Source: Holophagales bacterium
GTDB lineage: Bacteria; Acidobacteriota; Thermoanaerobaculia; UBA5066
Direction: 5' to 3'
Assembly (NCBI GenBank): GCA_016714815.1
Contig: JADKBZ010000008.1
Span: 53,513-117,512, forward strand
DNA length: 64,000 nucleotides
In this document: one piece after another, positions 14,753 through 64,000 of the stretch
How positions within the stretch are numbered: position 1 is the first letter of the stretch
Layout of the letters: each line of letters opens with the position of its first letter
Translations under genes and position numbers: made by a program
Notes under the pieces: generated by a model
The model's database searches: none
Told to the model about the DNA's origin: nothing
Seen by the model: the letters and a program-made list of their open reading frames with translations, nothing else

Positions 14753-16066
14753 ATGTCGACCTACGACGAGGAGGCCTTCATGTACCGTAGCCAGTCCATA
14801 CCGGAGCTCGAGCGGTCCTGGTCCAACGACCTCAGGTGGCGCGGGATCGTCCGCCCGTACAGCGCCGCCGACGTCGACCGCCTCCGCGGCACCATCCAGA
14901 TCGACTACCCGGTCGCCCGGATGGGCTCCGAGCGTCTCTGGAACCTCCTCCACACGGAGAAGTTCGTTCCGGCCCTCGGCGCGCTGACGGGCAACCAGGC
15001 CGTGGAGCAGGTCCAGGCCGGCCTGAAGGCGATCTACATGTCGGGCTGGCAGGTCGCGGGCGACGCGAACGACGCCCTCACGATGTACCCCGACCAGAGC
15101 CTCTACCCGGTGACGAGCGTCCCCACCGTCATCCGGCGGATCACGAACGCCCTCATGCGCGCGGACCAGATCCAGCACATGGAAGGCAAGTCCGACATCT
15201 ACTACTTCGCCCCGATCGTGGCCGACGCGGAAGCGGGCTTCGGCGGGCCGCTGAACACGTTCGAGCTGATCAAATCGATGATCGAGGCGGGCGCCGGCGG
15301 CATCCACCTCGAAGACCAGCTCTCCTCGCTGAAGAAGTGCGGCCACATGGGCGGCAAGGTCCTCGTGCCGATCCACGACTTCATCAGCAAGCTCATCGCC
15401 GCCCGCCTCGCGGCGGACGTCCTCGGCGTCCCGACCGTCTTCATCGGCCGGACCGACTCCCTCGGCGCCGGCCTCATCCGCGGCGACATCGACAAGGTCG
15501 ACCAGGAGTTCCTGACCGGCGAGCGGACCGCCGACGGCTTCTTCATCGTCAAGGGGAGCCTCGACTACGCCGTCGCCCGCGCCTGCGCCTACGCCCCCTA
15601 CGTCGACGTCGTCTGGTGCGAGACCTCCACGCCCGACATCGGCGAGGCCCGCGCCTTCGCGCAGGGCGTCCACGAGAAGTTCCCCGGCAAGATCCTCGCC
15701 TACAACTGCTCCCCCTCGTTCAACTGGAAGAAGAAGCTCTCCGACGCCGAGATCGCGACCTTCCAGGAAGAGCTCGGCGAGATGGGCTACAAGTTCCAGT
15801 TCATCACCCTCGCCGGCTTCCACACGCTGAACGCCTCCATGTTCAAGCTCGCGTACAACTACGCGAAGACCGGCATGACCGCCTTCGCCGCCCTCCAGGA
15901 AGAAGAGTTCCAGATGGAGCGCGAGTGGGGCTTCAAGGCGATCAAGCATCAGCGCTTCGTCGGCGCCGGCTACTTCGACCAGATCCAGCAGACGGTCGCC
16001 GGAGGCGAGGTCGCCACCGCGGCGCTCAAGGGCTCCACGGAAGAGGAGCAGTTCGACAAGCACTGA
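14753..16066 (+). CDS. aceA: Isocitrate lyase
   Basis: Strong identity to ICL, including the KKCGHMGGK active-site motif. Start taken at ATG 14753 ([11 protein letters not shown]...). TTG 14726 or a later ATG are also possible. Confidence 0.9.
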
Positions 16067-16158
16067 GGCGACACCTCGCCTCGAGTTCCCCGAAAGGGCG
16101 CGCTCCGGCGCGCCCTTTCGCTTTCCGGGGCCCGGTAGAGACGGGAACGAGAAGGGGA

Positions 16159-16222
16159 TCGGGAGAACGGGAGGTCGGGGGATCGGGAGACCAGGAGACC
16201 AGGAGACCGGGAGACCGGGAGA
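16159..16222. repeat. Tandem 8-bp repeat (consensus GGGAGACC, about 8 units)
   Basis: Seen directly: GGGAGAAC GGGAGGTC GGGGGATC GGGAGACC AGGAGACC AGGAGACC GGGAGACC GGGAGACG, about 90 bp downstream of the aceA stop. Confidence 0.7.
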
Positions 16223-16291
16223 CGGTGAGCACGTCAGTCCACTTCACCGTGCCGCACGAGTCGCGGGCGGGAGGGGTGTCCCACGGCGGCG

Positions 16292-16334
16292 CTCGCCGGG
16301 GGGCCTGAGCTTCGCGCGGCCCCCCGGACCCCCA
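16292..16334. repeat. 43-bp direct repeat copy 1, containing a GC hairpin (GGGGGGCC-12 nt-GGCCCCCC)
   Basis: CTCGCCGGGGGGCCTGAGCTTCGCGCGGCCCCCCGGACCCCCA. A perfect second copy lies at 16434-16476. Confidence 0.75.
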
Positions 16335-16433
16335 CCCTCAATCTGCGCGCCCGTCTCGTGCCCGGCCTCGTTCCGCCGCGCGACCCGCATCGGCCCCGCT
16401 CCGCGGTCCGCCGGGGCGAGCGCGAACGCCTCG

Positions 16434-16476
16434 CCCTCGCCGGGGGGCCTGAGCTTCGCGCGGCCCCCCGGACCCC
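16434..16476. repeat. 43-bp direct repeat copy 2 with the same internal hairpin
   Basis: Identical 43-mer to 16292-16334, 142 bp downstream. Confidence 0.75.
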
Positions 16477-16651
16477 CAGTCCCATCTGAGGCCGATCGTC
16501 GTGCGGACATCGTTCTCGTTGCACGCGCGCGCTCGCCTGATCCGGCGGCCTGCTCGCGGAGCCGTGCGGGTCCCCGCGCGTACTCGGACGCCGCTCGCGG
16601 GCCTCCCCTCCCGCCCGCTCACACCCCTCGCCAATTCAAGCGCGGCCATAC

Positions 16652-16679
16652 GGGGTCAGGTCTTGATTTTCTACTATAG
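16652..16679 (+). repeat. Conserved 28-bp AT-rich motif, copy a (GGGGTCAGGTCTTGATTTTCTACTATAG)
   Basis: The 19-bp core GGGGTCAGGTCTTGATTTT is identical in four copies in this window. Lies about 275 bp upstream of the Uma2 gene. Confidence 0.8.
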
Positions 16680-16788
16680 GTCTTGCAGGTAGGCGCGATG
16701 GGGCTAGCCCTTTCTCCGGCTGAAGCTGCCAGCGAGAGAACGACGGAAGCCGGATCGAGCCCCGGGACGATGAAAGCCGGCCCGACGC

Positions 16789-16822
16789 CGCTTGATTGCA
16801 ACGAAAAACGGAACTGACCCCC
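16789..16822. repeat. Partial, rearranged copy of the 28-bp motif (CTTGATTGCAAC...CTGACCCC)
   Basis: CTTGATT followed 17 nt later by CTGACCCC (the reverse complement of GGGGTCAG), about 110 bp downstream of copy a. Weaker evidence. Confidence 0.35.
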
Positions 16823-16953
16823 GTGCACTCCGTCCCGCCGGAGATGGAACGGCTCTTCGCGGAGCTCCTGCGGCAGCTGGAGAGCTGAGCGAGGAGCGCC
16901 TCCTCCGCTTCCCCGCGGCGTCCGCCGCCTTCTTCCGAGAGTAGACTTCGCAC

Positions 16954-17535
16954 ATGTCAGCCCTCCCGGACCTCGCCTCCCACTTCCGGGCTCTCGAGGC
17001 GATCCTGGAAGCCCAGCCGGAGGGCCAGAATGTCGAGATCGCCCGGGGCGTCTACGCGATGACTCCCCGGCCCCGGTTCCGGCACGCCGTCGTGCAGACG
17101 AACCTGTCATCCGCGCTGAAGGTACGGTTCGGTACAGGCACGCCGGCCACCCCTCCCGACTGGCTGTTTGCAATCGAACCCGAGATCCGCTCCGAGGAGG
17201 CCTTCTCGCGCCTCATCCCGGACGTGGCCGGCTGGCGCCGCTCGACGACGGGCTGGCCCGATGGGGACGAGAACCCCGTGACGCTCGCTCCGGACTGGGT
17301 GGCGGAAATCCTCTCGCCGGGAACCGAGGCGTACGACCGGGGCCCGAAGCGCGAAGCGTGGGGCCTCGTCGGAGCGGGATACCTCTGGATCGTCGATCCC
17401 GTCCGGCGCCTCGTCGAGACGTTCGTGAACGTCCGCGGGAAGATGATCGCCGGACCGGTCCTCCTCACGGACGACGTCCTCGCGGCACCGCCATTCGAGG
17501 GACTCTCCGAGCCGGTGGCCGGGATCTTCCTGTAG
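16954..17535 (+). CDS. Uma2-family (DUF820) putative restriction-endonuclease-like protein
   Basis: 193 aa. Characteristic ...APDWVAEILSPGT... (PD-(D/E)xK-like Uma2 motif). Confidence 0.8.
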   Translation: MSALPDLASHFRALEAILEAQPEGQNVEIARGVYAMTPRPRFRHAVVQTNLSSALKVRFGTGTPATPPDWLFAIEPEIRSEEAFSRLIPDVAGWRRSTTGWPDGDENPVTLAPDWVAEILSPGTEAYDRGPKREAWGLVGAGYLWIVDPVRRLVETFVNVRGKMIAGPVLLTDDVLAAPPFEGLSEPVAGIFL

Positions 17536-17584: not shown

Positions 17585-18043
17585 TCAATCCTCGAGCTGC
17601 CTTTCGTGGCCGTTCGGACAGGTGCCCCGGATCGAGTCGTGCCAGCCGTCGTCGTCGAAGACCGACCAGGTGCGCCAGTGGCCGCGGCAGAAGACGCTCG
17701 CGCACTGCGGGCAATAGAACGGCGCGTACTCCGGGTCGACGGACAGCAGGGCCGGGGCGTCGCCCCGACGAACCGAACCGGCGAGAGGTTCGAGCGCGAG
17801 GAGAGGCAGCCGGGTCGTGGAGTGCCCCAGGAAGCCCGAGACGACGAGGCTCGCGTGGTCTTCGGCGCGGCAGACCGTGACGGTCGCCGCGACCGCGCCG
17901 CACAGCGAGCAGGAGAACTCGTGAGTGGCGGCGACCAGCCCGGATGAGGAAGAGTCGGAGGACACGCGTGCGAATCGTAATCCGCCGACGGTCAGGCAAA
18001 GAGGGCGTGTCGGCCCGCGGCCGATCACGCCCGTCACTGGCAT
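17585..18043 (-). CDS. Small Cys-rich hypothetical protein (possible zinc ribbon), co-directional and immediately downstream of the 1432-aa membrane protein
   Basis: High GC3 on the minus strand for the C-terminal ~125 codons (..SCSLCG..C..YCPQCASVFCRGHW..CPNGHE). The N-terminal ~25 codons have low GC3, so the true start may be the GTG at 17965. The plus-strand ORF 17540..17947 is rejected. Confidence 0.4.
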   Translation of the reverse strand: MPVTGVIGRGPTRPLCLTVGGLRFARVSSDSSSSGLVAATHEFSCSLCGAVAATVTVCRAEDHASLVVSGFLGHSTTRLPLLALEPLAGSVRRGDAPALLSVDPEYAPFYCPQCASVFCRGHWRTWSVFDDDGWHDSIRGTCPNGHERQLED

Positions 18044-18053
18044 CGGGGGCTCG

Positions 18054-21000
18054 TCAGCGATCCGGGGGCTCCTCTGCCGGGGGGTCGAGCGGGGGCGGAG
18101 GAGGCGGAGGAGGGATTGAAGGAGGGATGGGCGGAGGCACGGCCCCCGGCGGCGCCATGTTCCGATCCACTTTCGGCTTCGGTTTCGAGAGAGGCTTCCA
18201 CCCCCCGCCCGCGACGTACGCCGACCACGCCCATTTCAGCCAGGCAATGAGTCGCGTCGCGAGCCAGAGCGACCAGAGAAGCATGACGACGCGATAGGTC
18301 CAGAGCGGGAGGCTGAAGACCCAGGCCCCGGGGAGCGCCCCGTCGAAGCGGTCGACGTACCACTTGAGGAGCGTGTCGCTGCTGCCGTTGCCGGCGACCT
18401 GCATGTCGGGCTTGATGAGCAGCCCCTCGTGGACGGCGCCGTAGAGGCCGGCGAGGAAGATCACGGTCCAGATGGCGAGGAGGAGCTGGAAGAAGTCGTG
18501 GAGGCCGGGGCTCTGCTCGGCCTTCTTCTCGCGCCACGCGAAGACGAGGAACCACCCCGCGACGGCGAGGACGGCGACGACGTGCAGCTGCGCGAGCCCG
18601 AAGCCGAGGAGGAGCCACTCCCACCCCTTGAGCGGGCTCGACGGGAGCGTGCCGAGGACGAGCGACAGGAAGGCGACGACGGCGAGAAGGCCCCAGAAGA
18701 GGACGGCCGGGCCCCAGCTCGGGCCTCCGGCGAAGAGGAGCCAGCGGTCGTTGGGAAGCTGGAGGGCGAGGTGCCCGTTCACCGCGGCCTGCCCCACGTG
18801 AACGCGCGGGAGCCGCTGGAGGAGCGAGATCCCCCCGGCCTGCCGCCACGTCACCTGGATCTTCTGGGCCCCCGGCCCCACGGAGAGGTGGAGCTCGTCG
18901 CCGTCGGGCCGGACGGGCCTCACGTCGTCGCCGACGCGCACCTCCTGCACCTCGGCCTTCGCGGGGAGCGTGATCGTCAGCGGCCCGGTGCGGCTCGCGC
19001 GGACGGAGAGCGCGAGGGTCGCGTCGAGGAGCCGGACGCCCGGGCTGACCAGGAGCGAGGCGTCGTCGATGGTGAGGCTCTGCCCCTGGGCCCCGGCCGG
19101 CCTCTGGAAGGCCAGGTCGAGCGACTCGCCAGGCCACGGGCGGTACTCCGAGGCGAGCGTTCCGTCCGCCTCGCGGGAGGTCGGCGCGAAGGCGCCCTTC
19201 GCCGAGCACTGCCAGACGGCGCCGCAGCGGAGGACCCAGACCTCCGACCAGGGCTTCCCCTCGGCGGCTTTCAGCGTGAGGGTCGCGCCGTCGGCGGGCT
19301 TCAGCGTCGACGTCCAGCGCGTCTCCTCCTCGTCGCGCCCGAACGTGAGGAGGACCTCGCCGTCCTTCACGGGATGGTCGGCGTCGGTGACGAGCATCCC
19401 CTTCAGGAGCGGGACCTTCACGACGAGCGGCGTCCCGGGCGGGCTGACGCGGCGGACGACCGTTTCGACCTTCCACGAAATGCCGATCTCGAAGATCCGC
19501 GTCACCTCGAGCCACGGCTCGTAGTGCCCTTCGGACCCCGCCTCCCCGCGGCTCCCCGCGTCGAGCTTGCGCGTGAGCTGGACGGAGCCGTCGGTCGTGC
19601 CGTCCTCGCGGACGCCGTCCACCTGCCATCCGTCGGCGACGGCACGTATCCGGCGCGGCCGGTCGACGAACTGGAGGGCGAGGCTGTCGCGCGGCGGAAG
19701 GGGCCCCGAGACGACGACCTGGTGCGTCCCGGCCGAAAGGCGCAGGTGGAGGAATCCGTCGTCGCGCCGCGCAAGGGCGAAGGCGGGCTGCCCGTCGACC
19801 GTGACGCTGCGCGGGACCCACGCCGACGCCGGGCCGGGAACGGGCCAGGCGGCTTCGGAGGCGGCGTGGACCTCGGCGACGATCTCGACGTCGGCGCCCT
19901 TCACGGCGAGGCGCACGTCGGGGGTCGCGATGCAGCTCGGGGCGCAGGCCGGCGGCCGGGTCAGGCGCGTCTTGAGCTCTTCGAGGATCCCGGCGTCGGG
20001 AAGCCCTTCGAGCGCCGCGGGCTTCGCAGCGTTCGCCGCGTTCGGCTCCGGAGCGGGCTCCTCCCCGGCGGCCGCGACGCGGGGGACGCCGAGGAGGAGG
20101 ACGAGGAGCGCGGCGGTGGCCACCGGCCTTCCGGGGCGGAACCCCTCGCCGACGCGAGGATTGGAGAGGAGGCGCAGGGCGAGGAGGCCGACGAGGAGGA
20201 CGCGGACGACGGCGAGGACGAGGTTGAGGAAGGGCGAGAGGAGGAAGAGGCGGATGCGGTGATCCTTCGCGACCGGGCCCGACCAGCGGAGGGGCTGGGC
20301 GTTCCAGCTCCAGGTCGGCACGCCGGAGCCGGTCTGGATGACGGCGTGCGGGTCCTGCCGGTAGGCCTCGTCCGACGACTTCGACGGGGGCACGACGCTC
20401 GCAGCCTGATTCTGGAGGTAGAGCTGCGCCGACTTTCGGAGAGGCGACGGCGTCGGCATCGCCCTGCCAAGGGCTTCCTGCGGTGCGGACGGGGGCGCCA
20501 TCGCGGGGGCCGCCTCGGCAAACGCATGCACTTCCTGGGACTTCGGGGCCTCTGCGACCGAGACCATTCCCCCGTCCGCCCAGACCGGCGGTCCGGCCTG
20601 CTCCGTCTGCGGGTAGAGCCCGTGCCTCACCTGCCCCACCGCGAACGGAAGCGCGACGACGACGAGGACGAGAGCGGAGACTCCCCACCAGGTGAGGACC
20701 ACCAGACGGAGCTTTCCCCTGGCGACCACGGTGAGGAGGGCCGCCGCGCCGAGGAGGCTGAGCCAGACGAGCGCGGGCGCCCCCGCCTCGCCGTGGCAGG
20801 CGACGAGGGTCGCCAGCGCAACCACGCCCCAGCGCCAGCCCGCGAGCTTCCACGCCGCGAGGGCGACGAGAAGGACGAGGAAGAAGCCGAAGAGGTCCCA
20901 CCTCCCGAGCCAGGCCTGCGGCGTGGAGTCGACCCCGCGGGCCCCCAGGAGACGCCAGCCCGGAGGCAGGTAGAGCGTGCCGGAGAGCCCCTGCACGTCG

Positions 21001-22352
21001 ATTCCCCAGCCGACCGCAGACAGCCGGCCGGGCCGGCCGGCCAGGCGCGACTCGGCGGTCATCCGAAGGGTCGTCCTTCGGAGCTCCACGCCCGAGAGCT
21101 TCTCCGCCGGGTCGACGGTGATGAGCTGGTCCTCGCCGTCGACGGTGGCCCGGCCGAGGCTCCCCGGGGAGAGGAGGTTGAGGCGCGAGGTGCGGCGGAG
21201 AGTTCCCGAGAAGCGATCCCGCACGGTGAAGCCCTTCCCGTCCAGGTCGAGCCAGAGCTCGCGCGAGACGTTGACCTGGTCGGGCGCGGCCTCCGCCTCG
21301 CCCCGGCGCGTCTCGACGAGATTCAGCTCCGTCTTCGAATCGAGCTGGAAAGCGGGGAGCTTCTGCCACTCGACGGGGAGGTCCGTTCTCGACGGGTCGA
21401 TCGGCGTCCCTCCCGAGAGCTCCACCTGGCGGAGCCGTTCGTTCGCCGCGAAGACCCAGATCTCCTGGCCGGGCCACGGCGCGATCACGGCGGCGTCGGG
21501 CCGGAAGGCCGAGGGCCGGCCCTCGACGCGGAAAAGGACCGATACGGTGAATCGCCCCGTTCGCACTTGGACGACGAGGCGGCCGTCGGCGTCGAGCCGC
21601 GCGGGGAGCTCGCCTCGCACGGCGACGGGGACCGTCCCCGGAAGTCGGGCACCCGAGAGCTTCACCTCGCGTGCCTTTCCCGAGACCTCGAGGAGGAGGC
21701 GCGTCTCGAGGAAGAGCGGGATGCCGTCCTCCAGGCGGCGGAAGACCTTCACCCGCAGCTCCTCGCCGACTCCGGCCCGTTCCCCTTCCTGCCGGAGGAG
21801 GAGGAGTCCGTTCTCCTCGCGTCGCGGGAACGCCACCGTCCGCCCGTCGAGAACGAGGTCGAGGAGGGCCGTTTCCGGGGGGACGACGAGCGAGTCGGGA
21901 AGAGTGCTCCAGGCGAATCGTCCCTCGACCGTGTGGCGTCCCGCGCCGAGGAGGACCGCGGGGCGGTCGTCCCTCGGGACGACGGCGGCAGCCTTCCCGT
22001 CGAGCCGCACGTCCTGCGGCCAGACTTTCGCGTCGCCCGGCAGCGGGAGGAAGAGGGGCCGTTCGGCCCACGCCTCCAGGACGAACGTCCCGCCGGAGGC
22101 TCCGAGGCGGAGCGTGATCCGTCCGGGCCACAGGCAGACGGCTTCGTCGCCGACGGCCGGGCAGGTGCGGTCGCGCGCCCCGTCGAGAGCCCAGGGCACC
22201 CAGCCCTTCAGCGCGGGCGGGAGGTCCTTCTCTGGAAACGGCTGCGCGGCCGCCCGGGGCGCGGCCGCGGCCAGGGCCGCCGCCAGGACCACCGCGAGAG
22301 ACGTGGAGACGAACGCGAAGTCCGTCGCGGGCCGGGATCCGCTGCGAGTCAT
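18054..22352 (-). CDS. Large (1432 aa) membrane protein with an internal tandem duplication ([~430-600 aa periplasmic domain + ~4-TM bundle] x2) and a Pro-rich C-terminal tail; no family assigned
   Basis: Signal peptide MTRSGSRPATDFAFVSTSLAVVLAAALAAAAPRAAA. Two hydrophobic clusters (about aa 470-570 and aa 1215-1390) with similar local sequence (..WKLAGWRWGVV.. and ..LKGWEWLLLG..). The two periplasmic halves are alignable (CP..C.WPGRITL../CAPSCIATPDVRLAV..; ..RPLFLPLPGDAKVWPQDVRLDGKAAAVVPRDDRPAVLLGAGRHTVEGRF.. / ..AAWPVPGPASAWVPRSVTVDGQPAFALARRDDGFLHLRLSAGTHQVVVSG..). The opposite-strand 1399-aa ORF is Arg/Glu-rich junk. Confidence 0.7.
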   Translation of the reverse strand: MTRSGSRPATDFAFVSTSLAVVLAAALAAAAPRAAAQPFPEKDLPPALKGWVPWALDGARDRTCPAVGDEAVCLWPGRITLRLGASGGTFVLEAWAERPLFLPLPGDAKVWPQDVRLDGKAAAVVPRDDRPAVLLGAGRHTVEGRFAWSTLPDSLVVPPETALLDLVLDGRTVAFPRREENGLLLLRQEGERAGVGEELRVKVFRRLEDGIPLFLETRLLLEVSGKAREVKLSGARLPGTVPVAVRGELPARLDADGRLVVQVRTGRFTVSVLFRVEGRPSAFRPDAAVIAPWPGQEIWVFAANERLRQVELSGGTPIDPSRTDLPVEWQKLPAFQLDSKTELNLVETRRGEAEAAPDQVNVSRELWLDLDGKGFTVRDRFSGTLRRTSRLNLLSPGSLGRATVDGEDQLITVDPAEKLSGVELRRTTLRMTAESRLAGRPGRLSAVGWGIDVQGLSGTLYLPPGWRLLGARGVDSTPQAWLGRWDLFGFFLVLLVALAAWKLAGWRWGVVALATLVACHGEAGAPALVWLSLLGAAALLTVVARGKLRLVVLTWWGVSALVLVVVALPFAVGQVRHGLYPQTEQAGPPVWADGGMVSVAEAPKSQEVHAFAEAAPAMAPPSAPQEALGRAMPTPSPLRKSAQLYLQNQAASVVPPSKSSDEAYRQDPHAVIQTGSGVPTWSWNAQPLRWSGPVAKDHRIRLFLLSPFLNLVLAVVRVLLVGLLALRLLSNPRVGEGFRPGRPVATAALLVLLLGVPRVAAAGEEPAPEPNAANAAKPAALEGLPDAGILEELKTRLTRPPACAPSCIATPDVRLAVKGADVEIVAEVHAASEAAWPVPGPASAWVPRSVTVDGQPAFALARRDDGFLHLRLSAGTHQVVVSGPLPPRDSLALQFVDRPRRIRAVADGWQVDGVREDGTTDGSVQLTRKLDAGSRGEAGSEGHYEPWLEVTRIFEIGISWKVETVVRRVSPPGTPLVVKVPLLKGMLVTDADHPVKDGEVLLTFGRDEEETRWTSTLKPADGATLTLKAAEGKPWSEVWVLRCGAVWQCSAKGAFAPTSREADGTLASEYRPWPGESLDLAFQRPAGAQGQSLTIDDASLLVSPGVRLLDATLALSVRASRTGPLTITLPAKAEVQEVRVGDDVRPVRPDGDELHLSVGPGAQKIQVTWRQAGGISLLQRLPRVHVGQAAVNGHLALQLPNDRWLLFAGGPSWGPAVLFWGLLAVVAFLSLVLGTLPSSPLKGWEWLLLGFGLAQLHVVAVLAVAGWFLVFAWREKKAEQSPGLHDFFQLLLAIWTVIFLAGLYGAVHEGLLIKPDMQVAGNGSSDTLLKWYVDRFDGALPGAWVFSLPLWTYRVVMLLWSLWLATRLIAWLKWAWSAYVAGGGWKPLSKPKPKVDRNMAPPGAVPPPIPPSIPPPPPPPPLDPPAEEPPDR

Positions 22353-31934: not shown

Positions 31935-34175
31935 ATGACGCACCGCAGCTCTCGCCGCAGGGCCGTCGTTTTCGCCGCGTCGCTTCTCGCCGCGTCCTGC
32001 GGACGCGCTCCCGCGATGCCTCCGGCGAAGGCCCGCCTCGACGGGTACCAGCTGAAGAGCTCCTTCTCCGAAGGGCTCGCGGTCCTTCAACGGTCGGACG
32101 ACCTGGCGCTGGGCTTCGTCGACGCGAAGGGAACCGTCGTCATTCCGCCCCGGTTCCAGGACGCCGGGCGGTTCTCCGAGGGTCTCGCCGCCGCACGCGA
32201 GGAGTACCGGGAGGGGTTCGGGTACGTGGACCGGGCTGGACGGATGGTGATCCCACCGGGCTACGACGCGGCGCTTCCGTTCTCCGAGGGGCTCGCGGCC
32301 GTCCTCCTCGACGGGCGCTGGGGATTCGTCGACCGGACGGGCGCGGTCCGGATACCCCCTCGCTTCGACGACGTCTCCCCTTTCCGCGAGGGCCGCGCGC
32401 GGATCGTCGTCGACGGCCTCGCCGGGTTCGTGGACGCGGCCGGGAACGCCGTGATCGCGCCCGCCTGGTTCCGGGCGGGCGACTTCCACGACGGGCTCGC
32501 CGCCGTCTGCGGCCGGAGCCGGTGCGGCTTCGTCGACCTCTCGGGGCGCGCCGCGATTCCTCTCGATTACGACGATGCCGGCTCCTTCGCGAACGGCCTC
32601 GCCCCCGTGAGGGCCGGCGAGAAGTGGGGCTACGTCGACCCCGGCGGCCGGATGGCGATCGCTCCGTCGTACGACGAAGCCGAGCCGTTCGCCGAGGGGC
32701 TCGCGCGGGTCGGGGTCGTCAAGGACGCCACGTTCGACACGAAGTTCGGCGGCTTCTCGGGACGGACGACGGTCAGCGGCTTCATCGACCCCTCCGGGAA
32801 GTGGGTCGTCGAGCCGAAGATGCTCGGTGCGACGTCGTTCTCGGGAGGGTTCACCGCCGTCCGCCTGCCGGCCGGCGGCCTCTGCAGCGACTGCTACGAC
32901 TTTCGGTTCATGGCAAAGGACGGCGTCTTCCTGCCCGGGCGCTACGACTTTGTCCGCCCCTTCTCGGAGGGGATCGCCGTCGTCGCGAGGTCCCGGAAGA
33001 GCCGGCTGATCGACGGGAAGGGCGTGCCCCTCGTCGAGCTCGACCTGAGCTATGTCGAGGACGAGGCGCGGAGCCCGGGCACACACGTCCCGCACAGGTT
33101 CGGCCTCGTCGACGTCGACGGGAAACCCGTCCTGCCCCACTCGCTCCTCTCGGCCCAGCCCTTCTCGGAGGGGCTCGCGCTCGTCGAGGAACGGTTGGAC
33201 CGAAAGGTCCAGCGGAGGCGATTCATCGACCGGAAGGGCGAGACCGTCCTCGACGTTCCCGCCTCGCTCGGACAGGCGCTGCCTTTCGCTGGCGGGCTTT
33301 CCCTCGTGTCTGCGACGAGCGGCGGGAAGACGCTCTACGGCTTCATGAACAGGACCGGGACCGTCGTCGTCCCGATTCGGTTCGCGAACGCGTCGCCTTT
33401 CTCGGAAGGGCTTGCGGCCGTAAAGGTCTCACGCGACCTCGGCGCGAACGACTGGGGCTACTTGGACGCGAAGGGCGCGTTCGTCATCGAACCCCGTTTC
33501 AAGGCGGCCGGGCCTTTCTCGAACGGGCTCGCGTTCGTCGAGTGGGTGACGAAGGAGCACCATCTCCTCTCCGGCGTGATCGACCCCGGCGGCCGCGTCG
33601 TCGTCGAGAAGCCGTTCTCGCAGGAGCTCTCGGGCGCCCTCTTCGGGACTCCGTCCGTCGAGCAGTTCCGGCGCCTGCAAGGCCTCCGGTTCGGCGAGCG
33701 GCTCGTCCCGCGGCACGACGCCTCGGGCCCTTCGTGGGCCGGACCGGACGGCCGGACCGTCGTCCCCGCCTCGCCCCTCGCCAGGGCCGGACTCTTCTCC
33801 GAGGGGAGAGCGCCGGTGCAGGCGAGGAGCGGTTCGCCGAGCGGGGTCTCGTGGGGCTACGCCGATCCCGGGGGCCGGCTCGCCGTTTCGGCCGTCCACG
33901 CCGCGGCCTTCCCGTTCTCCGAGGGGCTCGGACTCGTGCGCGACCTCGCGGGACGGTGGGGATGGGTCACGCCGTCGGGGGAGTGGGCCATCCCTCCGAT
34001 GTGCCTGGAGGAGGCGAAGCCCTTCTCGGACAGACGCGCTCTCGTGAAGCTCAACGGGCGGTGGGGCTACCTCGACCGGGCCGGCCGCTTCGCGATCCCA
34101 CCACGGTACGTTCGTGCGGAGGCGTTCTCGGAAGGGCTCGCCGTGACGGCGATGCCGGTGGGCCGCAGACCGTAA
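31935..34175 (+). CDS. WG-containing repeat (KWG) lipoprotein, about 17 repeats
   Basis: 746 aa. Lipobox-like LLAASCG. Iterated ..FSEGLA.V...WG(F/Y)VD..G..VIP..(F/Y)D.A.. units. Confidence 0.8.
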   Translation: MTHRSSRRRAVVFAASLLAASCGRAPAMPPAKARLDGYQLKSSFSEGLAVLQRSDDLALGFVDAKGTVVIPPRFQDAGRFSEGLAAAREEYREGFGYVDRAGRMVIPPGYDAALPFSEGLAAVLLDGRWGFVDRTGAVRIPPRFDDVSPFREGRARIVVDGLAGFVDAAGNAVIAPAWFRAGDFHDGLAAVCGRSRCGFVDLSGRAAIPLDYDDAGSFANGLAPVRAGEKWGYVDPGGRMAIAPSYDEAEPFAEGLARVGVVKDATFDTKFGGFSGRTTVSGFIDPSGKWVVEPKMLGATSFSGGFTAVRLPAGGLCSDCYDFRFMAKDGVFLPGRYDFVRPFSEGIAVVARSRKSRLIDGKGVPLVELDLSYVEDEARSPGTHVPHRFGLVDVDGKPVLPHSLLSAQPFSEGLALVEERLDRKVQRRRFIDRKGETVLDVPASLGQALPFAGGLSLVSATSGGKTLYGFMNRTGTVVVPIRFANASPFSEGLAAVKVSRDLGANDWGYLDAKGAFVIEPRFKAAGPFSNGLAFVEWVTKEHHLLSGVIDPGGRVVVEKPFSQELSGALFGTPSVEQFRRLQGLRFGERLVPRHDASGPSWAGPDGRTVVPASPLARAGLFSEGRAPVQARSGSPSGVSWGYADPGGRLAVSAVHAAAFPFSEGLGLVRDLAGRWGWVTPSGEWAIPPMCLEEAKPFSDRRALVKLNGRWGYLDRAGRFAIPPRYVRAEAFSEGLAVTAMPVGRRP

Positions 34176-40220: not shown

Positions 40221-43200
40221 ATGCAACGCTTCCCAGCGACAGCTCTGGCCGCGAGTCTCCTCGCGGTCCTGCCCTTGGCCTCCGCGGCCGCCCAGCCCGT
40301 CGCGGACGTCGCGGACGTCACGAAAGACGCCCGCCTCTTCCGCTTCCCCGACGTCCACGGCGACACGATCGCCTTCTCCCACGCCGGAGATCTCTGGACC
40401 GTCCCCGCCTCCGGCGGCACCGCGCGCCGCCTGACGACCGGGGACGGCCTCGAGCTCTTCCCCCGCTTCTCGCCCGACGGGAAGTGGATCGCCTTCACCG
40501 GCCAGTACGACGGGACGACCGACGTCTACGTCATGCCGGCCACCGGAGGCGAGCCGCGCCGCCTCACCTGGTACCCCTCGACGGACCAGTCGGAGCGGAT
40601 GGGGCCCGACAACCTCGTCCTCGGCTGGACCCCCGACGGGAAGATCCTCTTCCGTGGCCTGCGCGGGCCGATCCGCGGCTTCGTCGGCGAGCCTTACGTC
40701 GTCTCGCCCGAAGGAGGCCCGGTCGAGCGCTTCCCGCTCCCCGAGTCGGGCGCCCTCAGCTTCTCGCCCGACGGGAAGCGGATCGCCTACAACCGGATCT
40801 TCCGCGATTTCCGCCCCTGGAAACGCTACAAGGGGGGCATGGCCCAGGACGTCTGGCTCTACGACCTGGCGTCGAAGGCGATCGAGAAGGTCACCGACTG
40901 GCCCGGCACCGACACGCAGCCGATCTGGATCGGCGGGTCCGTCTACTTCCTCTCCGACCGCGACGGCTGGAAGGGGAACCTCTGGAAGGTCGACGTCGCG
41001 ACGAAGGCGACGGCGCGCGTCACCTCGTTCGCCGAGTACGACGTGAAGTGGCCGAGCGCCGGCGAAGCCGGGGGCGCCTCGATCGTCTTCGAGAACGGCG
41101 GCTGGCTCTACCTCCTCGACACGAAGAGCGGGCAGAGCCGCAAGGTGACGGTCGATCTCCCCGACGACCGCAAGCTCGCGCGGACCCGCTGGACGAAGGT
41201 GGACGAGAGGATCACCGACTTCGCCCTCGCCCCCGGTGGGCAGCGCGCCGTCCTCACGGCCCGCGGCGACGTCTTCACCGTGCCGGTCGAGAACGGCAAC
41301 ACCCGGAACCTGACCCGGACGAGCGGCGCGCGCGAGCGCAACGCCGTCTGGTCTCCCGACGGGAAATCGGTCGCCTGGTGGTCCGACGCCTCGGGCGAGG
41401 AGGAGCTCTTCGTCGCCCCGCAGGACGGCAAGGGAGATCCGGTGAAGGTCGCCCCGGCGACGAGCACCTGGCACTTCCCTCCCGTCTGGTCGGGCGACTC
41501 GAAAAAGCTCGCGTACTCCGACCGGACGATGCGCCTCTGGGTCGTCGACGTGGCCGAAAAGAAGCCCGTCCTCGTCGACACCGCGACGATCCTCGAGATC
41601 TCCCGCTACGCCCTCTCGCCCGACGGGCAGTGGCTCGCCTACGTGAAGTCCGTCGAGAACGACTTCCCCGTCGTCTTCCTCCACTCGCTCGTCACGAAGA
41701 AGACGGTCCCGGTCACGTCGGCCGCCTCCCGGGCCGCAGAGCCGGTCTTCGACCCGGAGGGGAAATACCTCTACCTCCTCTCCGACCGCGACCTCAACCC
41801 GACGCTCGGCGCCTTCGAGGCCTCGTACACCGTCAACAAAACGACCCGCCCCTACGCGCTCCTTCTCGCCGCCGCCACTCCTTCGCCCTTCGCTCCGAAG
41901 AGCGACGAGGTGAAGCTGGGGGGAGCGAAGGAGCCCGCAAAGGACGAGAAGAAGCCCGAGCCGGGCAAGGAGGCCGGAAAGGAGGCCAGGAAGGAGGGCG
42001 ACGGAAAGGACGTGCCGAAACCCGTCACACTGAAAGTCGACCTCGACGGGATCGAGAGCCGCCTCGTCGCCTTCCCCGTCCCGCCCGGCAACATCTACGG
42101 CCTGACGGCGGCGAAGGGGAAGCTCTTCTGGCTCTCCGCGCCGACGCTCGCCCTCACCGAAGGGGACGGCCCGCCGAAGAGCGCCCTGCAGATGTACGAC
42201 CTCGAGAAGAGGAAGGTCGCCGACCTCTTCCCCGCCGTCGAGAACTACGACCTCGCGCCCGACGGTTCGAAGCTGATCGTCAGGTCCGACGCGAAGACCT
42301 ACCAGGTCGTCGAGCCGAAGGAGGGGCTCAAGCCCGGGGACGGTAAGCTCGACCTCTCGGGCCTCCGGATGGAGCTCGACCCGCGGGCCGAGTGGCGTCA
42401 GATCTTCCGCGAGACGTGGCGCCTCTACCGCGACTTCTTCTACCTCCCCGACATGGGAAAGATCGACTGGGACGGGATCCGGAAGCGGTACGAGCCTCTC
42501 GTGGCGCACGTCTCCCACCGCTTCGACCTGACCTACGTCCTCTCCGAGGTCGCCGCCGAGCTCGGCTCGGGCCACGCCTACGTCGGCGGCGGCGACGTGC
42601 CGAAGGTGGAGAAGCTCCCCGTCGGCATGCTCGGCGCCGACCTCGCGCTCGACGCGAAGGCCGGCCGCTGGAAGATCGCCCGCATCCTCCCCGGCCAGAA
42701 CTGGAACGAGAACCGTCGCTCGCCGCTCACCGAGCCGGGCGTGAACGTGAAGGAGGGGGACTACCTCCTCGCCGTCGACGGCCGCGACCTGACCGCGAAG
42801 GACGAGCCGTATCGCCTCCTCGTGGGGAACTTCCCCGCCGCCTCCTCCTCCGGCCCCACCCCGCGCACCGTCACCCTCCTCGTAAATGCGCAGCCCGTCG
42901 CCGCCGGCGCCCGCGAGGTCGTCGTGAAGCCGATCGGAAACGAAGAAGAGCTCCGCTACGTCGACTGGGTCGAGACGAACCGGAAGAAGGTCGACGCCGC
43001 GACGAACGGCCGCGTCGGCTACGTCCACATCCCGAACATGGGAGGCGACGGCCTCCAGGAGTTCATCCGGCAGTTCTACCCGCAGCTCCGAAAGGAAGCG
43101 CTCGTCGTCGACGTCCGCGCCAACGGCGGCGGCTTCGTCTCCGAGATGATCCTCGAGCGGCTCGCCCGCACGGTGAAGGGAATGGGGAACATGCGCAATG

Positions 43201-47359: not shown

Positions 47360-47387
47360 CTATATTAGAAAATCAAGACCTGACCCC
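47360..47387 (-). repeat. Conserved 28-bp motif, copy b (minus orientation), about 70 bp upstream of the alpha/beta-hydrolase start
   Basis: The reverse complement reads GGGGTCAGGTCTTGATTTTCTAATATAG. Confidence 0.8.
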
Positions 47388-58683: not shown

Positions 58684-58711
58684 GGGGTCAGGTCTTGATT
58701 TTACATTATAC
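58684..58711 (+). repeat. Conserved 28-bp motif, copy c (GGGGTCAGGTCTTGATTTTACATTATAC), in the divergent region about 115 bp upstream of the 58826 gene
   Basis: The 19-bp core is identical to the other copies. The 3' part is a variant. Confidence 0.8.
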
Positions 58712-61156: not shown

Positions 61157-61334
61157 CGTCAGCTCCTCCTCGAGGTCGGGCCGAGGACAGTCTGTTCGGT
61201 CGGGTCGACTTCCGACATGATCCGCGTCATACGGGCCAGCGGGGGAATCCGGAAGGAGAGGCCTCCGACGGTCGGGACCGACGGACTGCGAGGGCTTCGT
61301 GAAGAACTGCCGTCACAACCCAGGAGGGAACGCG

Positions 61335-62723
61335 ATGAGTCGACATGCTCCTGCCGACGTCACGAGAGACGTTCGCGCATTCATCCATGCGCACGTCCCG
61401 ATCTCCGCCCTCCTGGCGCTCTCGCTCATCGCTGCAACTCCCGCCCGCGCGGCCGACCCGCCCGGGCTCGTCGGCCTGGACGCGCTCTACCCGTCGCTCG
61501 ACGCGCTCTACCTCGACCTCCACCAGAACCCGGAGCTGTCCCTGCACGAAGAGAGAACGGCCGCCGAGATGGCGGCGCGCCTGCGCAAGGCTGGCTTCGA
61601 AGTCACGGAGCACGTCGGCGGCACCGGCGTCGTCGGCGTCCTGAAGAACGGGCCCGGTCCGACCGTCCTCGTCCGAACCGACATGGACGCCCTGCCGATG
61701 CCGGAGAAGACCGGGCTCCCCTACGCGAGCTCCGCCACGGCGAAGAGCGACGCCGGCGAAACCGTCCCCGTGGCGCACGCGTGCGGCCACGACGTCCACG
61801 TGACGTCCTGGGTCGGCGCGGCCACGCTCCTCGCACACGCCAGGACCCGGTGGAGCGGAACTCTCGTCTTCGTGGGGCAGCCCGCGGAAGAGGTACTCCG
61901 GGGCGCCGACCAGATGATCCGGGACGGCCTCTTCACGCGCTTCCCGAAGCCGGACTTCGTCGTGGGCCTCCACGTCAGCAACCTCATCGCCGCCGGCCGG
62001 GTCGGCGTTCCGCCGGGGCCGGCGTCCGCCGCCTCGAATGCCGTCGACATCACCTTCTACGGGCGCGGCGGCCACGGCGCCGCGCCGCATCGCACCGTCG
62101 ATCCCGTCCTGATCGCGGCCCGTGCCGTGGTGGCCCTCCAGAGCATCGTGTCGCGCGAGATCAACCCCTTCGATCCGGCGGTCGTCACGGTCGGCACGAT
62201 CCACGCGGGGACGAAGCGGAACATCATTCCCGACGAGGCGAAGCTCGAGCTGACCGTCCGCTCCTACAAGCCCGAGGTGCAGAAGCAGCTCCTCGCGGCG
62301 ATCGAGCGGATCGCAAAGGCCGAGGCGGCGGCCGCCGGCGCGCCGCGCCCGCCGGAGATCGTCGTCGATCCCCGCGAGGCGTCCGAGGTGGTCGTCAACG
62401 ACCCCGCCCTCGCGGCTCGCCTCTCGTCGGCGCTTCGTCGCGGGCTCGGCGACGCGAACGTCGTCCCGCACGAGCCCGCGAGCTCTTCCGAGGACTTCGG
62501 CGTCTACGGCCGGGTCGCCGGCGTCCCCGGAGTCCAGCTCCGCGTCGGCGCGATACCGCCGGACGAGTTCGCCACAGCGGCGAAGGAGGGCCGATCCGTC
62601 CCCGGGCCGCACAACTCCAGGTTCGCTCCCGACCGCGAGCCCACGATCCGCACCGGGGTCTCGGCTCTCACGCTCTCCGTCCTCGAACTCCTCGGTCTCC
62701 CCGCCAGGGGGGTCAGGTCTTGA
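61335..62723 (+). CDS. M20-family amidohydrolase (aminoacylase/hippurate-hydrolase-like), secreted
   Basis: ATG 61335 after AGGAGGGA. Signal-like ..ISALLALSLIAATPARAA. ..AHACGHDVH.. metal-binding motif of M20D. The stop TGA lies inside motif copy d. Confidence 0.8.
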   Translation: MSRHAPADVTRDVRAFIHAHVPISALLALSLIAATPARAADPPGLVGLDALYPSLDALYLDLHQNPELSLHEERTAAEMAARLRKAGFEVTEHVGGTGVVGVLKNGPGPTVLVRTDMDALPMPEKTGLPYASSATAKSDAGETVPVAHACGHDVHVTSWVGAATLLAHARTRWSGTLVFVGQPAEEVLRGADQMIRDGLFTRFPKPDFVVGLHVSNLIAAGRVGVPPGPASAASNAVDITFYGRGGHGAAPHRTVDPVLIAARAVVALQSIVSREINPFDPAVVTVGTIHAGTKRNIIPDEAKLELTVRSYKPEVQKQLLAAIERIAKAEAAAAGAPRPPEIVVDPREASEVVVNDPALAARLSSALRRGLGDANVVPHEPASSSEDFGVYGRVAGVPGVQLRVGAIPPDEFATAAKEGRSVPGPHNSRFAPDREPTIRTGVSALTLSVLELLGLPARGVRS

Positions 62724-62736
62724 TTTTCTACTATAG
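62709..62736 (+). repeat. Conserved 28-bp motif, copy d (GGGGTCAGGTCTTGATTTTCTACTATAG), wedged between two convergent genes and supplying both stop codons
   Basis: TGA (62721-62723) ends the + strand amidohydrolase. The reverse complement of CTA (62731-62733) is the TAG ending the - strand amidase. Confidence 0.8.
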
Positions 62737-64000
62737 TCCGGGCGGCGGGACGTAGCCTCCCGCGACCTGGGCGACGAGCTTCGCCACGTGGATCGCCGTC
62801 CGGTCCTCGAGGTACGGGCCGACGACCTGGATCCCCGCGGGGAGGCCGTCTCGCGTGAAGCCGACGGGCGCGGCGGTGCCGGGGAGCGAGGAGAGCCCGG
62901 CGAGCGCGGGCCATCCGAGGAGCGTCCCGAGGTAGGGCTCCGCCACGCCGTTGACGGCGAGAGTCCGCTTCGCGAAATCGGGGCTCTGGTCGTGCGGGAA
63001 TGCAGGGCTGGGGAAGACGGGACAGAGGAGCGCGTCGTACCGGCGGAAGAACTCCGTCCAGAGCCCTCGCATCCGCTCGCGCGCCTCGCGAGCGAGCTCG
63101 AAGTCGCGGTGGGTCTGGACGCTGTCGCGCGTCAGGCGGGCCCGGAACGAGTCGTCGTCCGGGGCGAGCGCCGCGGCGCGGGACTGGAGCTTCTCGAACT
63201 GCCCGTCGGCGAGGCCGGGAGACATGCTGCCGTAGAGGACGCGCATGAAGAGCCGCGCGTTCCGGGCGAGGGTGAAGCCGGGGCGGGCCTCGGTGTCGAC
63301 CTCGGCGCCGGCCGCGCGGAGCTCGGAGACGGCGGCCTCGAGCCGCTCCCGGAGGGCGGCGTCGACGGGCGCCACGGAGTCGTCGAGCCAGGCGGCGAGC
63401 CGATAGTCGGAGAGGCCGCGGCGACGTGGGGGCGGGAGCTTGAGGTGCCAGGCGACGGCGTCCTTCTCGTCGGCCCGGGCCACGACGCGAAGGGCGAGGT
63501 CGAGGTCGTCGGCCGAGCGGGCGATCGGCCCGGCCGTCTCGAGGTCGGGCGCGGCGAGCGTCCCGGGAGGGCCCGGGATGTGTCCGCGCGTCGGGACGAT
63601 TCCGAAGCTCGGGCGGTGGCCGAAAACGCCGCAGAACGCCGCGGGGATCCGGATGGAGCCGCCGAGGTCGCTCCCGAGCTCGAGCGCGGAGAGGCCCGCG
63701 CTCATCGCGACGGCCGAGCCGCCCGAGGAGCCGCCGGCCGTGAGCGACGGGTCCCACGGGTTGTTCGTCGTGCCGAACGCCGTGTTGTACGTCTGGATGT
63801 CCATCGCGAGGGTCGAGAGGTTCGTCTTGCCGAAGACGATCGCCCCCGCGGCCTTCAGCCTCGCGACGGCCTTTGCGTCCTTCTCCGGAACGTAGGCCTC
63901 GAGGCCGGGCGCGCCCCCCGAAGTCGTCTTCAGGCCGGCCGTCTCGAACGAATCCTTCACGGTGACGGGAAGCCCGTGAAGCGGACCGCGAAGGTCTCCG
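62731..64000 (-). CDS. Amidase-signature (AS) family amidase, 5'-truncated by the window end
   Basis: ..GGSSGGSAVAMSAG.. and ..GSIRIPAAFCG.. The ORF remains open upstream of the listed GTG at 63958-63960 (continues ..GPLHGLPVTVKDSFETAG..), so the N-terminus lies beyond position 64000. Confidence 0.85.
   Translation of the reverse strand, partial: GDLRGPLHGLPVTVKDSFETAGLKTTSGGAPGLEAYVPEKDAKAVARLKAAGAIVFGKTNLSTLAMDIQTYNTAFGTTNNPWDPSLTAGGSSGGSAVAMSAGLSALELGSDLGGSIRIPAAFCGVFGHRPSFGIVPTRGHIPGPPGTLAAPDLETAGPIARSADDLDLALRVVARADEKDAVAWHLKLPPPRRRGLSDYRLAAWLDDSVAPVDAALRERLEAAVSELRAAGAEVDTEARPGFTLARNARLFMRVLYGSMSPGLADGQFEKLQSRAAALAPDDDSFRARLTRDSVQTHRDFELAREARERMRGLWTEFFRRYDALLCPVFPSPAFPHDQSPDFAKRTLAVNGVAEPYLGTLLGWPALAGLSSLPGTAAPVGFTRDGLPAGIQVVGPYLEDRTAIHVAKLVAQVAGGYVPPPGL

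Follow-up and report, generated by a model that had tools for sequence, protein, structure and literature searches.

Why should an otherwise compact bacterial genome leave almost 0.9 kb between two neighbouring genes? The question is raised by a 64,000-nucleotide stretch of DNA from a Holophagales bacterium (contig JADKBZ010000008.1 of assembly GCA_016714815.1, positions 53,513 to 117,512; hereafter the window, with coordinates counted from its first base). A non-coding gap of 887 bp (16067-16953) is situated there between two genes of the same strand: aceA, which ends at 16066 (Pfam ICL, 1.1e-106), and a Uma2-family gene, which starts at 16954 (PF05685, 9.6e-21). A preliminary description, made from the sequence alone, had called this gap unusually long, non-coding and repeat-rich, and the four repeat features that it listed are all real. 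The data presented below indicate that the gap most probably arose as non-autonomous repeat elements, rich in palindromes, gathered beyond the aceA terminator and formed a mosaic specific to this lineage. Such a mosaic would resemble the clusters of repetitive extragenic palindromes (REPs), bacterial interspersed mosaic elements (BIMEs) and miniature inverted-repeat transposable elements (MITEs) of other bacteria. Its parts are, in order, the terminator, a GC-rich long-hairpin repeat with an 8-mer edge and two nested modules, a 170-bp MITE-like unit derived from a TIRtron (an element bounded by terminal inverted repeats, TIRs), and 132 bp of unique sequence.

It is apparent that the gap does not encode a protein. 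GC periodicity by codon position, which is strong in aceA and Uma2, is absent across 16067-16750; the open reading frames (ORFs) of the gap gave no Pfam matches; and copies of its repeats differ by frame-breaking insertions and deletions. A protein-coding gene was ruled out on these grounds, in agreement with the earlier opinion that the ORFs carry no coding signature. No tRNA or tmRNA was detected in the window.

Alignment with the aceA loci of relatives, a check proposed in the preliminary description, revealed that the region is absent from them. In one relative with an aceA gene of 93% nucleotide identity (L136; loci used for comparison are numbered with the prefix L), homology stops exactly at the aceA stop codon, and at five further loci (L137-L141, aceA ~84% identical) aceA has different neighbours and is followed by no long gap. 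Conserved synteny of the gap was ruled out by these loci and by the non-syntenic copies of its repeats described below. The same-species contigs are at least 99% identical and therefore uninformative as to conservation of the gap; the window itself is ~99.6% identical to contig JADKGR010000010.1 of GCA_016722225.1. The short-read contigs of the species all break between 16474 and 16605, within the long-hairpin repeat, as expected of repeated DNA.

The long-hairpin repeat occupies 16226-16626 (+ strand) and belongs to a dispersed type designated arm1, as established by blastn, nhmmer and an alignment, A1, of 18 arm1 copies (that of the window and 17 others). In blastn searches, window positions 16154-16683 matched six loci (L083, L095, L111, L086, L059 and L065) at 80-90% identity. 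None of the proteins neighbouring the gap has a match at those six loci, where neither aceA, Uma2 nor their neighbours are found. Approximately 40 copies were recovered with nhmmer, and a metagenome scan with a conserved 22-mer yielded 22 further loci, at least 10 of which are contigs from one sample. The genomes having the window's repeats in common are labelled Thermoanaerobaculia or Holophagales.

In the window, the repeat folds as a rod-like hairpin spanning 16263-16618, with a closing stem that pairs 16263-16288 with 16592-16618. This stem includes a 23-nt long-range inverted repeat (16263-16285 with 16596-16618) enclosing a GC-rich block; it had been overlooked in the preliminary description, as had a terminator-like hairpin of aceA and an inverted, diverged motif copy at 16798-16821, both considered below. 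The basic arm is ~250 nt in length, and two nested modules enlarge the window copy to ~400 nt. Folded as single-stranded DNA, the window arm has an energy of -132 kcal/mol (z=-5.4). The 18 copies of A1 fold as one rod of 61 pairs, with 96.7% of cells paired and many invariant columns. Fourteen rod pairs have changed on both sides, compared with 4.8±1.3 in shuffled alignments (0/500) and at most 5 when the partners were slid. Complementarity of the hairpin is clearly maintained.

These properties raise the question of whether the long hairpin, alone or with a partner arm, is the gene for an undescribed structured non-coding RNA to which the surrounding repeats are incidental, a structured RNA locus having been among the identities first suggested for the gap. 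The compensatory changes in the 61-pair rod, the strength of the fold and the invariant columns are what such a gene would display; the modules inserted in loops resemble, in their behaviour, the expansion segments known from structured RNAs, and larger composites containing the arm are kept at orthologous loci in several species. Several results nevertheless argue against it. The rod contains 21 A.C mismatches and only 10 variable G.U pairs, and therefore neither strand looks like RNA. A covariance-model scan (Rfam 15), which had also been proposed, identified no known RNA family in the region; the long hairpin had no match in the window (E<=10) or in the canonical copy from L083 (E<=1), and the best match in the region was that of the terminator hairpin to STnc320, at 28 bits against a gathering score of 50. 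The arm is multi-copy at unrelated loci (one metagenome contains at least 10 copies), is situated beyond a terminator and has no conserved promoter that could be found.

Divergence between orthologous copies points in the same direction. At the metK locus, flanking genes are ~96% identical, the arms ~90%, and the linkers and 8-mer arrays 35-58%, with insertions and deletions; by our estimate, orthologous arms diverge at roughly the silent-site rate of the flanking genes and are approximately neutral. One ortholog (L059) is without the apical half of arm1. Arm variation shows no 3-periodicity and the copies differ by insertions and deletions of 1, 2 and 4 nt, so the arms are not coding either. 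The RNA-gene interpretation is thus decidedly improbable, and the structured RNA locus initially proposed found no support. Arm similarity together with a maintained hairpin does leave room for constraint or gene conversion.

The two nested modules are each ~78 nt long and lie on the + strand, the first in an internal loop of the long hairpin (16289-16366) and the second in its apical loop (~16435-16514; A1 columns 247-322). They have in common a core direct repeat of 46 nt (16289-16334 and 16433-16478) with 1 mismatch (98% identical). The core had been reported as two perfect 43-bp repeats; a perfect 43-nt match does exist, with its first copy at 16292-16334 as described, but the second lies at 16436-16478, 2 nt from the position first given. 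Each core contains CCGGGGGGCC-12 nt-GGCCCCCCGG, a 10-bp stem within which the 8-bp GC stem previously seen around the 12-nt loop is included. Both module blocks are extra in the window relative to all 17 other arm1 copies in A1; at the site of the second, L111 has a shorter GC hairpin. The ~78-nt module was also observed in L121, L132 and L124, and in the second-type arm (arm2) of L095. Because the ortholog of that arm in L114 lacks it, the module is an optional sub-element that can be gained and lost.

The outer edge of the long-hairpin repeat is a variable-number 8-mer array, (GGGAGACC)n, at 16137-16225 (+ strand). Tandem Repeats Finder (TRF) reported a period of 8, 8.0 copies and 85% matches at 16160-16223, with degenerate units reaching back to ~16137. 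The count of eight units made earlier is thus correct, whereas the array lies one base to the right of 16159-16222. The 64-kb window contains no other 8-mer array. Elsewhere, almost every copy of arm1 has an array of 2-8 (GGGAGACC)n units ahead of it, and arm2 is followed by the reverse complement of the array. The number of units varies even between orthologous copies (8 in L083, 4 in L116 and 2 in L059). It seems that no repeat of this make-up, a GC-rich long hairpin with nested modules and 8-mer edges of variable length, has been described before.

To the right of arm1 lies a 28-bp motif, GGGGTCAGGTCTTGATTTTCTACTATAG (type a), at 16652-16679 on the + strand. The preliminary description had reported this motif with a partial second copy. 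The motif was confirmed, and two partial copies exist: AGGTCTTGC, in direct orientation at 16678-16686, and the inverted variant at 16798-16821 described below. Motif searches found three more copies in the window: an exact one at 62709-62736 (+), between convergent genes for an M20 peptidase and an amidase; an intergenic one with 1 mismatch at 47360-47387 (-); and one with 4 mismatches at 58684-58711 (+), between divergent genes. At <=3 mismatches there are 3 copies in the window, as opposed to 0 in 100 shuffles, and in total the 64 kb holds 4 copies and 1 variant, as opposed to 0 expected.

The nature of this motif is indicated by its occurrence in other genomes. In AT-rich genomes, it is found ~45 nt upstream of a gene whose product starts MARPLRIE(F/Y)PGAVYH, and inverted motif copies flank Y1 genes in L063, L070, L108 and L036. 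The motif-flanked protein has a Pfam Y1_Tnp domain (6.7e-14) and a helix-turn-helix (HTH), and matches NCBIfam NF047646, 'REP-associated tyrosine transposase' (RAYT), at 83.8 bits (cutoff 80). One such protein is 33% identical (E=3e-35) to the published TIRYT pca3049. As a test independent of the motif, a profile made from 3 of these proteins was searched against a protein database, and contigs for 3 of the matches were fetched by protein identity. The search returned at least 8000 homologs. In all six loci retrieved through the proteins (L142-L147), inverted copies of GGGGTCAGGTCTTG bracket the transposase gene, one lying 46-55 nt ahead of the ATG and the other no more than ~25 nt from the stop codon. 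The same transposase protein, identical in sequence, was encountered in 3 different contexts. In two transposase-carrying elements, the left end is tandemly duplicated (L142:1423/1455 and L061:2462/2513).

The TIRYT/TIRtron class was so named for RAYT-like transposases whose genes lie between TIRs with the common consensus GGGGWSAS; these TIRs also occur as repeat families, whether solo, dimeric or clustered, in genomes that include those of Acidobacteria (Di Nocera, De Gregorio & Rocco 2013, PMC3733652). Most TIRYTs fall in subclass 2.1 of the TnpA_REP-like proteins, with HTH tails (Quentin et al. 2018, PMC6006769). The window motif agrees with these elements in several respects. All of its ends, at 16652, 47387 (-), 58684, 62709 and 16821 (-), begin with GGGGTCAG, which fits GGGGWSAS; inverted copies in other genomes flank a Y1 HUH transposase with a C-terminal HTH; and the motif forms moderately abundant solo, dimeric and clustered intergenic repeats in a group already known to host TIRtrons. 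Since inverted copies flank TIRYT-class genes elsewhere, the motif is shown to be a TIRtron end. It differs from what has been reported in that neither PMC3733652 nor PMC6006769 includes the 28-bp acidobacterial variant or the near-identity of a 14-19 nt core across ~10 phyla.

Together with an inverted end variant of type c (GGGGTCAGTTCCGTTTTTCGTTGC, 16798-16821, - strand, located by exact search), the 28-bp motif delimits a MITE-like unit of 170 bp (16652-16821), of which the motif is the left end and the variant the right. Copies related to type c occur in L105, L114 and L059. The 118-nt interior (16680-16797) has no coding signal and, by blastn, no homolog among the loci compared. The ends of the unit pair in the fold, although that of 16645-16830 as a whole is unremarkable (z=-1.5). 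A perfect palindrome previously placed at about 16700 does exist in the interior, as the 10-mer GGGCTAGCCC at 16701-16710 and not as the 11-mer quoted; it carries no weight, because a sequence of 887 bp should contain approximately one 10-bp palindrome by chance alone.

Like the Correia/NEMIS, ERIC, RUP and Nezha MITEs of other bacteria, the 170-bp unit is non-coding, has inverted ends and stands beside genes. Nested insertion into other repeats is common among MITEs. The unit departs from them in that its ends are only partly complementary (the first 8/8 bases, then patchily), in that neither a target-site duplication nor an empty site was identified for it, and in that its parent element uses an HUH and not a DDE enzyme. 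The earlier suggestion of a decayed mobile element or MITE cluster is supported by the multi-copy, non-syntenic repeats, the TIR motif of a Y1 transposase and the aceA loci of relatives that are without the region.

The 19-mer core of the motif, GGGGTCAGGTCTTGATTTT, was scanned in one genome per species of a 596 Gb collection. At least 103 loci with at least 127 copies were found, many of them inverted dimers; by our own arithmetic, ~4 matches are expected by chance in 596 Gb. The loci listed are mostly from Thermoanaerobaculia/Holophagales, and others are from Elusimicrobiota, Aminicenantes, Aerophobetes, WOR-3, Thermotogae, several Desulfobacterota, Gemmatimonadaceae, Clostridia, Synergistota and Gammaproteobacteria. 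Motif copies are intergenic and often form perfect ~60-nt inverted dimers (L022, L027, L039, L090 and L102). Exact GGGGTCAGGTCTTGATTTT is present in genomes of ~10 phyla, while the associated transposases are only ~50-60% identical; conservation of the end core is unusually strong for a transposon end. No plasmid or phage carriers of the end dimer were found, and a text search of the literature with two 13-mers of the motif core returned no paper.

The motif also touches host genes. The copy at 62709-62736 fills the gap between the M20 peptidase gene (61299-62723, +) and the amidase gene (62731-63960, -) and supplies both of their stop codons, TGA at 62721-62723 and CTA at 62731-62733 (TAG on the minus strand). 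The same arrangement of stop codons appears to exist in three other species (L052, L047 and L060), as judged from similar downstream sequence, and at several other loci the TGA of the motif terminates the upstream gene (...GVRS*). One or two degenerate GGGGTCA half-copies lie 15-17 nt upstream of many end motifs (L111, L031, L015, L052, L086 and L101).

Comparison with the REP/REPIN-RAYT systems and BIMEs of Proteobacteria reveals similarities as well. In both cases short intergenic repeats are tied to a Y1 transposase, inverted doublets form hairpins (here, the five loci with ~60-nt dimers), and repeats of different types form mosaic clusters after gene ends and terminators. A REP unit is an imperfect palindrome of 20-40 bp that bears a terminal GTAG (or CGTC) tag, and REPIN-RAYT systems are said to be lineage-specific and inherited vertically. 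The single 28-bp motif, by contrast, is not palindromic and contains no internal hairpin, its CTAC/GTAG being internal instead of at the base of a stem; hairpins are formed by dimers only. The protein associated with it is a TIRYT-type transposase that has an HTH tail, and the end sequence of the window is common to several phyla.

Elements of other known kinds were also considered. Integron attC sites, imperfect palindromes that measure 57-141 nt, each follow a cassette ORF and are in direct orientation; the arms are ~250 nt long, occur as inverted pairs and flank an ORF at one locus only (L119). Readings as a retron, a CRISPR locus or Tn3-type ends were dropped, as the defining partner genes or orientation are lacking.

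At ~10 other loci, the parts seen in the gap occur in a canonical order: 8-mers, arm1, end dimer, arm2 and inverted 8-mers. Arm1 (~250 nt) is followed by a spacer of 30-60 nt, the type a motif, a second spacer of 25-55 nt and a type b inverted end, which reads ...TAGACCAGACCCC. Arm2 is approximately the reverse complement of arm1 (~75%), yet it is conserved as a type of its own. These composites mostly occupy gaps between convergent genes, just beyond terminators. The window copy consists of the 8-mers, arm1 and the end pair; unique sequence and the Uma2 gene stand in place of arm2, and none was found downstream of Uma2, where there is only ~50 nt of space. In L119 (795-1834), the arms flank a 637-nt centre with a GNAT-like ORF, recognised by eye from its translation, instead of the end dimer, which hints that an arm pair can enclose cargo.

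Such regularity suggests another explanation, namely that the whole ~0.8-kb composite is one foldback-type non-autonomous transposon with long, differentiated terminal inverted arms and a capacity for cargo, of which the window holds a truncated copy. The constant order of parts, the conservation of arm1 and arm2 as distinct types and the GNAT-like ORF of L119 are all consistent with it, and the inverted outer 8-mer arrays resemble subterminal transposase-binding repeats. On the other hand, single arms occur (the window, L086 and L065), ~90% of the end-motif copies stand without arms, the arms are not tied to any transposase, and neither a target-site duplication nor an empty site was seen for the composite. 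We consider this explanation improbable. Taken more broadly, the possibility that the composite is an undescribed bacterial foldback element, or else that the arms are a new large structured RNA, is unlikely, though it deserves some weight. In the foldback case, the ~250-nt arms would fold as single-stranded hairpins and an HUH (TIRYT) transposase would move the whole unit; alternatively, the HUH transposase might place end dimers specifically into the exposed centre of an extruded palindrome. If either were true, the near-invariant GGGGTCAGGTCTTGA end, whose occurrence extends from Acidobacteriota to Proteobacteria, would be the signature of an HUH transposon that is unusually constrained and has spread horizontally with success.

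In the mosaic interpretation, which is preferred here, the ends of the 170-bp unit are those of TIRtrons, insertion-sequence-like elements of ~0.95 kb encoding a TIRYT, that is, a Y1 HUH tyrosine transposase related to RAYTs and with a C-terminal HTH. Solo and paired ends would have spread in trans through a TIRYT encoded outside the window or since lost. The long hairpins might persist by folding as single-stranded DNA (or RNA), with compensatory change, or conversion within the palindrome, re-establishing their complementarity. If the region affected the expression of aceA or Uma2, for example through termination or mRNA stabilisation, that effect would be a by-product.

Several observations weigh against the mosaic interpretation. 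Composites persist at orthologous sites across several species, at the metK locus in L083, L116 and L059 and at a second locus in L095 and L114, and the pairing of differentiated arms is not accounted for by simple MITE biology. Identity between arm copies is 80-93%, and orthologs resemble one another no more closely than paralogs do, a pattern that could reflect selection on sequence and not selfish spread. For the long-hairpin repeat, no pair of empty and filled sites and no target-site duplication was recovered, so that its transposition is putative. In a further difference from the published TIRtrons, tblastn with five TIRYTs detected no TIRYT gene for this organism, either in the 64 kb of the window or in acidobacterial loci totalling ~0.6 Mb, and the top 120 protein homologs of the profile include no acidobacterial names. 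Mobilisation in this lineage is therefore an inference.

A further explanation, also raised in the preliminary description, is that the gap is a dedicated regulatory region of the Uma2 gene, comprising promoter, operators and a 5' leader. The region does lie directly upstream on the same strand, and the 28-bp motif is the sole AT-rich patch in the gap. All of the conserved parts recur, however, beside unrelated genes and mostly between convergent ones, and Uma2 is unlinked to them elsewhere. A scan revealed no sigma-70-like promoter in or around the motif or the gap; the motif contains TTGATT, after which no conserved -10 sequence was seen by eye in other copies. The 132 bp nearest Uma2 (16822-16953, + strand) are unique, blastn of 16680-16953 having given no significant match; they are presumably its 5' region and are long enough for a promoter. 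This explanation is accordingly a highly improbable one.

As accumulated selfish DNA, instead of a hidden gene or RNA, the mosaic would explain the odd long gap in a compact genome, and annotators should mask the region instead of calling its Arg/Pro/Gly-rich ORFs. A motif present four times in the window is now tied to the little-studied TIRYT/TIRtron class, with an end sequence that is nearly identical across many phyla and that sometimes provides the stop codons of host genes. The long-hairpin repeat offers a tractable case for the study of palindromic-repeat persistence and of HUH transposase target choice. Understanding of aceA and Uma2 function is unchanged.

The terminator-like hairpin of aceA, at 16091-16120 (+ strand), has a perfect GC-rich stem of 13 bp and a 4-nt loop and is followed by CTTTCC; its RNA fold has an energy of -41.2 kcal/mol (z=-3.8). 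It is separate from the repeat elements. Similar hairpins are found 5' of the element in L095, L114, L129 and L133, where the repeat copies begin just past them.

Directly after the inverted end of the MITE-like unit is an ORF of 21 codons, VHSVPPEMERLFAELLRQLES* (16823-16888), with weak codon-like GC periodicity; it could be what is left of the 3' end of a gene that the insertions interrupted. The Uma2 protein itself was found on other contigs, one of them labelled wastewater metagenome. Beyond Uma2 are a 152-aa ORF (17585-18043, -; precomputed Pfam DUF8328) and an adjacent 1432-aa ORF (18054-22352, -), neither of which had a match in the Pfam scan of this analysis; the pair is kept beside Uma2 in all contigs of the species. 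Two artefacts were recognised in the sequences compared. An insertion seen in L002 results from a scaffold join across an N-gap that duplicates window positions 16000-16126 (L002:1283-1382), and positions 1-63 of L006 are Nextera adapter sequence in a public assembly. Finally, families of 33-38-nt direct repeats are present at 32270-34045 and 40460-41643, spaced by multiples of 3; the probable cause is a repetition of protein domains within long ORFs, and these families are unrelated to the gap.

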